From Escherichia coli (GTDB lineage Bacteria; Pseudomonadota; Gammaproteobacteria; Enterobacterales; Enterobacteriaceae), in assembly GCF_003334255.1 (NCBI RefSeq), contig NZ_QOWU01000255.1: a stretch of 353 nt of DNA. One strand, given 5' to 3'. A program made the position numbers and the translations under genes. Every line of letters begins with the position of its first letter. Position 1 is the stretch's first letter. The notes under the pieces were generated by a model. That model was given only the letters and a program-made list of their open reading frames with translations. It was not told where the DNA came from and searched no databases. Of this stretch, positions 13 through 336 are shown piece by piece.

Positions 13-153
13 CTACTGCTTACACTGTAAGAACGCCGCAAACTCCGCTCCCCACAAATTCAGCCGGAACTCACACAGCGAACCGTGTAACATCCAGATG
101 GTGAAGATTACCGTCATGCAAATTGTGACGGTGATAAGCGATTTTTGCGACAT
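13..153 (-). CDS. Hok/Gef-family type I toxin (small host-killing membrane peptide, HokA-like), 46 aa
   Basis: Minus-strand ORF from ATG (plus 153-151) to TAG (plus 15-13), translating to MSQKSLITVTICMTVIFTIWMLHGSLCEFRLNLWGAEFAAFLQCKQ. It has the Hok/Gef hallmarks: a short polar N-terminus, one hydrophobic transmembrane stretch (LITVTICMTVIFTIWML), the conserved SLCE motif, and an E-x-AAF C-terminal motif with a Cys near the end. From memory it aligns best with E. coli HokA (...FTWMIRDSLCELHIKQESYELAAFLACKLKE); I cannot assign a specific paralog, so no symbol is given. AGGAGG sits 8 nt upstream of the ATG. Confidence 0.9.
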   Translation of the reverse strand: MSQKSLITVTICMTVIFTIWMLHGSLCEFRLNLWGAEFAAFLQCKQ

Positions 154-158
154 AGCGC

Positions 159-187
159 TTGCCTCCTGAGTGGAGAGGCGCTAACCT
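159..187 (+). promoter_or_regulatory. Candidate promoter for the Sok-like antisense RNA (-35 TTGCCT, -10 TAACCT)
   Basis: Plus strand has TTGCCT at 159-164, a 17-nt spacer, and TAACCT at 182-187, which would start transcription near 194. The -10 matches consensus only at the conserved T1, A2 and T6 positions. It is the best-placed candidate upstream of the 213-250 hairpin, but weak. Confidence 0.25.
162..167 (-). promoter_or_regulatory. Shine-Dalgarno sequence (AGGAGG) of the hok-family toxin gene
   Basis: Plus-strand CCTCCT at 162-167 is AGGAGG on the minus strand, followed by 8 nt (CAAGCGCT) and then the ATG at 153-151. This is a perfect core SD with a canonical spacer. Confidence 0.8.
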
Positions 188-193
188 TCTACT

Positions 194-253
194 TGTCAAG
201 GAAAGAAGTGTCAGGGCCTCGGGTTAACGTTAAAGTTGACTCGGGGCCTTTCC
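194..253 (+). ncRNA. Candidate Sok-like antisense RNA (type I antitoxin), about 60 nt
   Basis: Plus-strand transcript antisense to the toxin leader: a ~19-nt 5' tail (194-212), then a 16-bp hairpin (213-228 paired with 235-250, loop GTTAAA), then TTTCC. The helix has 12 Watson-Crick and 4 G:U pairs on the plus-strand RNA; on the minus strand those 4 positions are C-A mismatches. Size and shape (single-stranded tail plus one terminal hairpin) match the roughly 64-nt Sok RNA of plasmid R1. The 5' end is inferred from a weak promoter and the U-tract is short, so both ends are uncertain. Confidence 0.4.
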
Positions 254-307
254 ACATCAGGCCTTCAGGTTCACCTTCCAGCCATCAGCCGAAAGGCACC
301 CGCGCAT

Positions 308-336
308 AATCTACGATTTTTGCCCTGCACGGGCAA
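308..336 (-). promoter_or_regulatory. Candidate sigma70 promoter for the hok-type mRNA (-35 TTGCCC, -10 TAGATT)
   Basis: On the minus strand, -35 TTGCCC (plus 336-331) and -10 TAGATT (plus 313-308) are separated by 17 nt, with a T6 run just upstream. The predicted start at about plus 300-301 gives a leader of ~150 nt, similar to hok of R1. The downstream RNA would begin GGGUGCCUUUCGGCUGAUGG, which resembles the R1 hok mRNA 5' end as I recall it (GGCGCUUGAGGCUUUCUGCCUCAUGACGUGAAGGUGG). Hexamer matches are only moderate. Confidence 0.35.

Follow-up and report, generated by a model that had tools for sequence, protein, structure and literature searches.

[quoted passage not shown] The R1 target loop is a U-turn that is bound by Sok, and the resulting duplex is cut by RNase III (PMC5668327). 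Toxicity of the peptide, its neutralization by the antisense RNA, and cleavage of the duplex by RNase III have been established for only two systems, R1 hok/sok and hokW-sokW (PMC1635323, PMC8621323). The latter, found in prophage 5 of strain Sakai, is a hok/sok-type cassette of Stx-type lambdoid prophages (PMC8621323). HokW is 51 aa long, starts with MKQQKAM (the start being taken from primer YO-357), and is 44% identical to R1 Hok (PMC8621323).

Two further antitoxins, SokC (59 nt) and SokB (57 nt) of E. coli K-12, are present in RefSeq as ncRNAs and share with the RNA predicted here a free 5′ tail (12 nt in both), a single hairpin, and a short 3′ tail (about 10 nt). A plasmid of R1 type, with a Hok that is 100% identical to the R1 Hok sequence, encodes a Sok with a 5′ tail of about 12 nt and one hairpin as well.

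The window, a 353-nt stretch of E. coli DNA analyzed here at its full length, is a hok/sok-type type I toxin-antitoxin cassette. This follows from a Hok/Gef ORF, a leader that matches Rfam RF01794, and pairing of the mRNA ends; the earlier note had already assigned the locus to this family, and the ORF together with the full-length leader match bears it out. The toxin side of the cassette lies on the minus strand:

13..153, minus strand: hok-like toxin gene, 46 aa (MSQKSL...FLQCKQ), from the ORF list, family matches, and the RefSeq annotation Hok/Gef family protein.
308..336, minus strand: putative hok mRNA promoter, TTGCCC (336-331), 17 nt, TAGATT (313-308), with +1 at about G301, a reading of the sequence.
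243..301, minus strand: hok mRNA 5′ domain, GGGUGCCU (301-294) with AGGCCCC (249-243), from the Rfam alignment, the centroid fold, and inverted repeat I3.
174..222, minus strand: hok mRNA target hairpin with a 13-nt loop (203-191), in agreement with the Rfam consensus structure.

The toxin ORF (153..13, minus strand) has the full 46-aa translation MSQKSLITVTICMTVIFTIWMLHGSLCEFRLNLWGAEFAAFLQCKQ and is the small hydrophobic Hok/Gef toxin that characterizes the hok/sok family. Its close relatives carry Pfam PF01848 and are named Hok/Gef, and it matches phrog_251 with an E value of 2.8e-24. Among NCBIfam models, it reaches 38 bits with HokA (curated cut-off 89) and 23 bits with Hok (cut-off 73). 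Compared with R1 Hok, which has 52 aa, the window toxin is 30% identical and has 46 aa; SokB and SokC, for their part, accompany HokB- and HokC-type toxins.

Eight E. coli chromosome records contain the whole window at 100% identity, and matching sequence is present in about 29% of the complete E. coli genomes (1553 of 5426). Many Stx-converting phages carry it with 94-96% identity. Strain EC2 has it inside a prophage, flanked by an Ail/Lom gene and tail-region genes, and every neighboring gene is on the same strand as hok. The cassette adjoins lom in an E. coli Stx-type lambdoid prophage, whereas that of R1 resides on a plasmid. Identity of the locus with hokW was considered and rejected, since the window toxin has 46 aa, starts with MSQKSL and not with the MKQQKAM of primer YO-357, is 30% identical to R1 Hok, and adjoins lom. 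In the literature searched, no experimental work on the lom-adjacent cassette of the window was found.

Several observations concern the surroundings and occurrence of the cassette. Positions 338-353 of the minus strand, continuing to 6360 in the identical locus L001, form the end of an intrinsic terminator (cccgc-tgtgatg-gcggg and then tttttt) that serves the upstream lom gene and has only its 3′ half inside the window. Viral contig L057 has two hok/sok cassettes in tandem; the second (128-169 on the minus strand, 229-369 on the plus strand) has a Sok-type hairpin scoring 49.8 bits and a 46-aa Hok ORF (MPQKTIIV...FLQCKQ) about 470 bp upstream of the first. Toxins from unrelated taxa were also encountered: one from Xanthomonas pisi (L002) is 100% identical to the window toxin over residues 1-43, and those of a Planococcaceae MAG (L003) and a Collinsella MAG (L005) are 74-76% identical to it. 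All three stand on short contigs (857-4211 bp), and these occurrences are likely contamination or mis-binning of Enterobacteriaceae DNA.

The leader of the window is aligned by RF01794 over all 157 model positions (minus strand, 301..142; E 4.6e-8), with model position 1 falling on 301, the putative +1 of the hok mRNA. The score of 41 bits stays below the gathering score of 59. Although the model is named “sok”, its alignment is to the strand in hok sense and extends from the beginning of the mRNA to the region of the hok start, a span of 157 nt, so that the model describes the hok leader and not the antisense RNA of about 60 nt. The model and the window agree in having a hairpin at the same spot; they differ in that the window falls short of the threshold and in the strand described.

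On the mRNA, two helices are of consequence. The target hairpin (minus strand, 222-174) folds with −19.8 kcal/mol (z −3.76), and its base is formed by GAGGC (220-216) with GCCUC (179-175) and by CUGAC (214-210) with GUUAG (185-181). These base pairs are kept in all 22 variants. The pairing within the 5′ domain occupies the lower 5′-side arm of an inverted repeat at 213-250 on the mRNA strand. In both the Rfam consensus and the centroid fold, the lower arms of this repeat are used by other mRNA helices, and a weak upper hairpin is left. Covariation did not discriminate between the two mRNA folds, i.e., one long hairpin or the 5′ stem plus the base of the target hairpin, as there is hardly any variation in the columns concerned. 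A 9-nt inverted repeat (317-325/331-339) overlaps the −35 box of the putative hok promoter.

In the hok/sok family, pairing of the tac/fbi type between the two ends of the full-length hok mRNA keeps the latter inert. Such 5′-3′ pairing is found in the identical locus L001, outside the window, where CAGCCGAUAUGGCACCCG (5964-5947, minus strand) complements the mRNA 5′ end CGGGUGCC...CGGCUG. In L001, a stable hairpin, gacggggacgaaagtccccgtc, precedes the 3′ element CAGCCGAUAUGGCACCCG that takes part in this fbi/tac-type end pairing.

The most probable reading of the inverted repeat at 213-250 is that a Sok-like antisense antitoxin RNA has its one stable stem-loop here. The corresponding features are as follows:

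159..187, plus strand: putative promoter of the Sok-like RNA, TTGCCT (159-164), 17 nt, TAACCT (182-187), then 7 nt to G195.
195..213, plus strand: predicted 5′ tail of the Sok-like RNA, with 195-204 left single-stranded by the fold and able to pair with the target loop of the mRNA.
214..249, plus strand: stem-loop of the predicted Sok-like antisense RNA, 15 pairs (214-228 with 235-249), coinciding with the inverted repeat.
229..234, plus strand: hairpin loop GUUAAA, variable among relatives.
250..259, plus strand: presumed 3′ tail of the Sok-like RNA, UUUCCACAUC, placed by analogy with SokB and SokC, which end about 10 nt past the stem.
224..233, no strand: perfect 10-bp palindrome TTAACGTTAA, made up of the top of the 5′ arm (224-228) and the first five loop bases (229-233).

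The long imperfect inverted repeat reported in the earlier note is real. As plus-strand RNA, it folds into a hairpin of 15 contiguous pairs with −26.4 kcal/mol (z −6.97), and none of 200 shuffles folds as well. Four of its pairs are G·U (214·249, 219·244, 222·241, and 225·238), and A213-U250 can be added as an optional pair. As DNA, the repeat has four imperfections, and each of them is a G·U pair once the plus strand is read as RNA; on the minus strand they become C·A mismatches, and therefore the version in the hok mRNA attains only −12.2 kcal/mol (z −2.9). On its plus strand, the window attains 58.1 bits with the hairpin covariance model. That the repeat is a product of chance devoid of function can be considered refuted, with a probability that is close to nil: in its favor is nothing beyond the short length of the window, and against it are the z value of about −7 and the persistence of the helix, with compensatory changes, in loci of Escherichia, Salmonella, and plasmids.

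Conservation was assessed on 27 distinct hairpins from genomes, viral contigs, one plasmid, and K-12. Plain MAFFT misaligned the bulged stems of hairpin type C, and the hairpins were realigned with a covariance model. A scan of viral contigs for the pattern GGCCTCGG...CGGGGCYTT gave 123 matches, 14 of them adjoining a hok-like ORF and the others unrelated, and contributed few new variants. In the 27 hairpins, 91.5% of the helix cells are paired, a percentage lowered by the still imperfect alignment of the type C upper stem, compared with 67-69% or less in slid controls. Both sides have changed at 6 of the 15 pairs, and none of 500 shuffles attains the observed values, with an alignment that was fitted to the structure. 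The lower stem is almost invariant, so most of the covariation is contributed by the upper stem and by a few clades. Conservation of the helix among homologs, for which the earlier note had proposed covariation as the check, is thus borne out. The loop, in turn, has a mean column entropy of 1.17 bits versus 0.24 for the arms.

The two strands are not equivalent in this respect. Watson-Crick pairs fill 274 cells over the 15 helix positions of the 27 hairpins; a further 94 are G·U only when read as antisense RNA and 1 only when read as mRNA, counts that are not phylogenetically independent of each other. In every one of the 27 variants, SokB, SokC, and the R1-type Sok among them, the antisense-sense fold is the more stable (means of −23.2 versus −12.4 kcal/mol), and the minimum-energy folds of the mRNA sense contain no G·U pair. 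In one relative (L084), the sole lower-stem change, C247 to U, leaves a G·U pair in the antisense RNA but disrupts the pairings of the mRNA. Because the same asymmetry recurs in all 27 hairpins, at 94 cells versus 1, the repeat is best read as the body stem-loop of a Sok-like antisense RNA. Selection on the helix, as judged from these sequences, appears to act on the plus-strand RNA and not on the hok leader.

The asymmetry bears directly on the possibility that the helix instead has its function on the minus strand, in the leader of the hok mRNA, as a conserved hairpin recognized by Sok. A hairpin is indeed present at this place in the hok-sense Rfam consensus, to which the window aligns; the centroid fold of the leader retains the upper hairpin, and the region is part of the leader sequence with which the antisense RNA can pair. 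Nevertheless, a role in the leader is unlikely. The mRNA helix, with its −12.2 kcal/mol and four C·A mismatches, is the weaker one in 27 of 27 variants, the G·U pairs favor the other strand 94 to 1, and the lower parts of its arms pair elsewhere, in the 5′ stem and at the base of the target hairpin (the latter kept in 22 of 22 variants). Moreover, recognition as published for the family proceeds from the Sok 5′ tail to the target loop (PMC1635323, PMC5668327), and at this locus the free tail matches the neighboring loop at 191-204.

The palindrome TTAACGTTAA, although perfect and correctly located at 224-233, is a chance by-product. At least one perfect 10-bp palindrome occurs in 27% of 5000 dinucleotide-preserving shuffles of the window (mean 0.32). 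In close relatives, it is lost with the helix kept, either through G229A (L014, L036) or through other loop changes (L015, L052, L057), and it is absent from hairpin types B and C, the apexes of which differ from that of the window. The earlier note had placed it at the apex of the repeat, but its axis (228.5) is offset by 3 bp from that of the repeat (231.5). Neither is GTTAAC its core, as had been proposed: the core is AACGTT, and GTTAAC at 223-228 merely overlaps the left end. Being composed of the top of the 5′ arm and five loop bases, the palindrome is unable to fold into a hairpin nested in the larger one. Such a nested structure, like self-pairing between loops by way of the palindrome, was rejected on the grounds that no room is left for a loop and the sequence is not conserved.

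A DNA-level role, whether as the binding site of a dimeric protein or as a restriction/modification target (AACGTT, GTTAAC), is correspondingly most improbable. The perfect 10-bp palindrome is present, as such a site would have it, yet it does not exceed chance, and natural variants disrupt it without loss of the RNA helix. The arms of the repeat, too, are imperfect as DNA and perfect as plus-strand RNA by virtue of G·U pairs, which would not be selected at a DNA site. The protein-binding site that the earlier note had offered as a less likely alternative is without support because the palindrome is not conserved.

Direct repeats had also been reported, and they are where they were said to be (CTCGGG at 218-223 and 240-245, GGGCC at 214-218 and 244-248). 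They do not constitute an independent feature. CUCGGG pairs antiparallel with CUCGGG by means of two G·U pairs, and GGCC is self-complementary, so that a wobble-containing stem necessarily reads as direct repeats. CTCGGG is in essence a G·U self-complementary stem segment that is conserved family-wide.

For the plus-strand RNA, the putative promoter within the hok leader has the position and geometry of its counterparts in R1-type sok (TTGCGC-17-TATCCT) and sokB (TTGCCG-17-TAAGAT-7-G). In the hok/sok family, the antisense promoter overlaps the region of hok to which the ribosome binds. Its −10 box, TAACCT, is invariant across 43 distinct leaders, although this invariance could instead reflect an mRNA helix (GGUUAG/CUAAC) over the same bases. 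A consensus promoter scan of both strands of the window flagged none, including TTGCCT-17-TAACCT and the hok promoter; both promoters are therefore assigned by homology only, and, judged against the consensus, the putative Sok-like promoter is weak. G195 is taken as the start by analogy with the annotated sokB, where 7 nt likewise separate the −10 box from +1. By this model, the Sok-like RNA is predicted to span about 195 to 255 on the plus strand. A plus-strand RNA of 195-259 folds with −31.9 kcal/mol (z −6.4) into a free tail (195-204) plus the hairpin, and this predicted fold has the architecture of Sok-type RNAs, i.e., a 5′ tail and one stable stem-loop in about 55-70 nt.

The 3′ end invites the reading that the hairpin is mainly an intrinsic terminator of the antisense transcript and has no other role. 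The G+C-rich base of the stem is followed by UUU, and SokB and SokC end about 10 nt past the equivalent stem, both of which accord with this idea. However, a scan of the window for intrinsic terminators found no terminator-like site, as the stem is followed by UUUCCACAUC with only 3 U (at least 5 U being the criterion), and the Sok stem-loop has been described as the structural body of the RNA (PMC1635323). An exclusively terminating function is thus very unlikely, but this reading overlaps with that of a Sok stem-loop, and the two are not mutually exclusive; by analogy with SokB and SokC, transcription may well end at the hairpin. With three U after the stem and the failed terminator scan, the position of the 3′ end is a guess.

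Comparison with known Sok RNAs supports the assignment of the stem-loop. A lower stem, GCCUCGG...(C)UCGGGGC, is common to SokC, SokB, R1-type Sok, and the window. In SokB and SokC, the base of the stem is nearly identical to that of the window (GGCCUCGG(G)UUGAU...CUCGGGGC), and sokB has the same distance from the −10 box to +1; the upper stem, loop, and tail are different. As in the window, the known hairpins are more stable than their complements, with −21.6, −22.2, and −23.0 kcal/mol for SokC, SokB, and R1-type Sok versus −10.9, −11.8, and −14.7 kcal/mol. R1 Sok resembles the window RNA in its lower stem (CCUCG.GGGUUAA.../...CGGGG) and in the apex arms GUUAAU/AUUAAC at the homologous position. 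The latter, GUUAAU...AUUAAC, had been named in the earlier note as an R1 element; it does exist, and on the R1-type plasmid it occurs at the place homologous to the window hairpin. Further likenesses to R1 are the G·U pairs on the Sok strand, an adjacent mRNA target hairpin, and 5′-3′ end pairing (PMC1635323). Tail and target sequences, in contrast, are unrelated between R1 and the window.

The predicted tail and the target loop of the window complement each other. Tail bases 195-204 are exactly complementary to the target loop (duplex −14.4 kcal/mol), and the loop (203-191) contains UUGA and CUUG, which are of the YUNR type at the level of sequence. The full duplex of the Sok-like RNA with the mRNA is calculated at −156 kcal/mol, compared with −32 and −52 kcal/mol for the separate folds. 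By analogy with R1, recognition would be made by the tail (195-204) and the loop (191-203), adjacent to but outside the stem-loop. The earlier note had regarded the repeat as probably the conserved antisense recognition stem-loop; conservation of the helix holds, while the stem-loop itself appears to be the scaffold of the antisense RNA, with recognition at the neighboring 191-204.

With the repeat read as the Sok stem-loop, the following course of events can be proposed. The plus-strand promoter within the hok leader (159-187) would start an RNA of about 60 nt near G195, which, once expressed, would fold into a free 5′ tail (195 to about 204-213), a hairpin of 15-16 bp (214-249), and a short U-rich 3′ tail. 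The tail would contact the loop (203-191) of the hok mRNA target hairpin, and pairing would spread over the entire complementary stretch, opening the Sok hairpin and the weaker mRNA hairpin to give a long perfect duplex. This duplex would block translation of the toxin and, as in R1, may serve as a substrate for RNase III. The stem-loop would act as a scaffold that holds the tail single-stranded, protects the 3′ end, and probably aids the end of transcription. Its four G·U pairs would make the helix strong in the antisense RNA and, as C·A, weak in the mRNA. There, the lower arms would instead take part in two other helices, one with the 5′ end of the mRNA (249-243 with 301-294) and one that closes the target hairpin (220-216 with 179-175).

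One difference from R1 concerns translation of the leader: R1 Sok acts through mok, an overlapping frame that is translationally coupled to hok and that Sok blocks, whereas in the window no conserved mok frame is evident starting in the tail-target region. On its minus strand, a mok-like frame is split into a 22-aa ORF (257..189, ATG 257) and a 42-aa ORF (199..71, TTG 199) in a different frame. Among 50 distinct relatives, 8 have an uninterrupted ORF of 61-79 aa that leads from the same ATG via the hairpin and the target region into hok; one relative with such an ORF (L032) differs by 1 nt near 195. The commonest relatives have a mok-like frame that stops after 8-15 codons. A conserved upstream ORF, or mok, from ATG 257 was therefore rejected as a conserved coding frame, a 1-nt difference in loop length being sufficient to cut it to 8 codons in the commonest relatives.

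Variation among the leaders is unevenly distributed. The segment 196-212, which comprises the tail and target loop, is the most variable part, and the lower stem of the hairpin is nearly invariant. The tail types and the hairpin types (two or three) are found in different combinations, a pattern in the sequences that suggests recombination between cassettes. A variable tail and target, a constant lower stem, and the mixed combinations fit a constant scaffold with a variable address. It is conceivable, if rather doubtful at present, that the lom-adjacent cassette with the 46-aa toxin is modular, with a near-constant Sok hairpin scaffold, a hypervariable “address” in the tail and target loop that is swapped by recombination, and a G·U-rich stem that frees the mRNA bases. 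Up to seven such places occur in one genome, and cassettes are sometimes in tandem. If true, a modular address would let the cassettes of co-resident prophages avoid cross-talk. Likewise, the G·U-rich stem would let one DNA sequence encode a strong antitoxin hairpin with the same bases free for alternative helices of the toxin mRNA.

As a whole, the element is an ordinary, family-typical part of a well-understood system, and its importance beyond annotation is little. What is new is an unannotated Sok-like gene belonging to a widespread and apparently unstudied second hok cassette in Stx-type prophages. Also new is that the curated RF01794 misses the subfamily of the window at its threshold and is hok-sense; annotation based on this model would yield the wrong strand and the wrong extent for the Sok RNA. 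Counting G·U versus C·A pairs provides a simple general test of which strand of a cis-antisense pair owns a helix. The analysis assigns an unannotated antitoxin RNA gene, with its strand, to a Hok/Gef gene of about 29% of complete E. coli genomes and of many Stx phages. A second hok/sok cassette beside hokW-sokW could matter for the timing of Stx phage lysis or for prophage retention.
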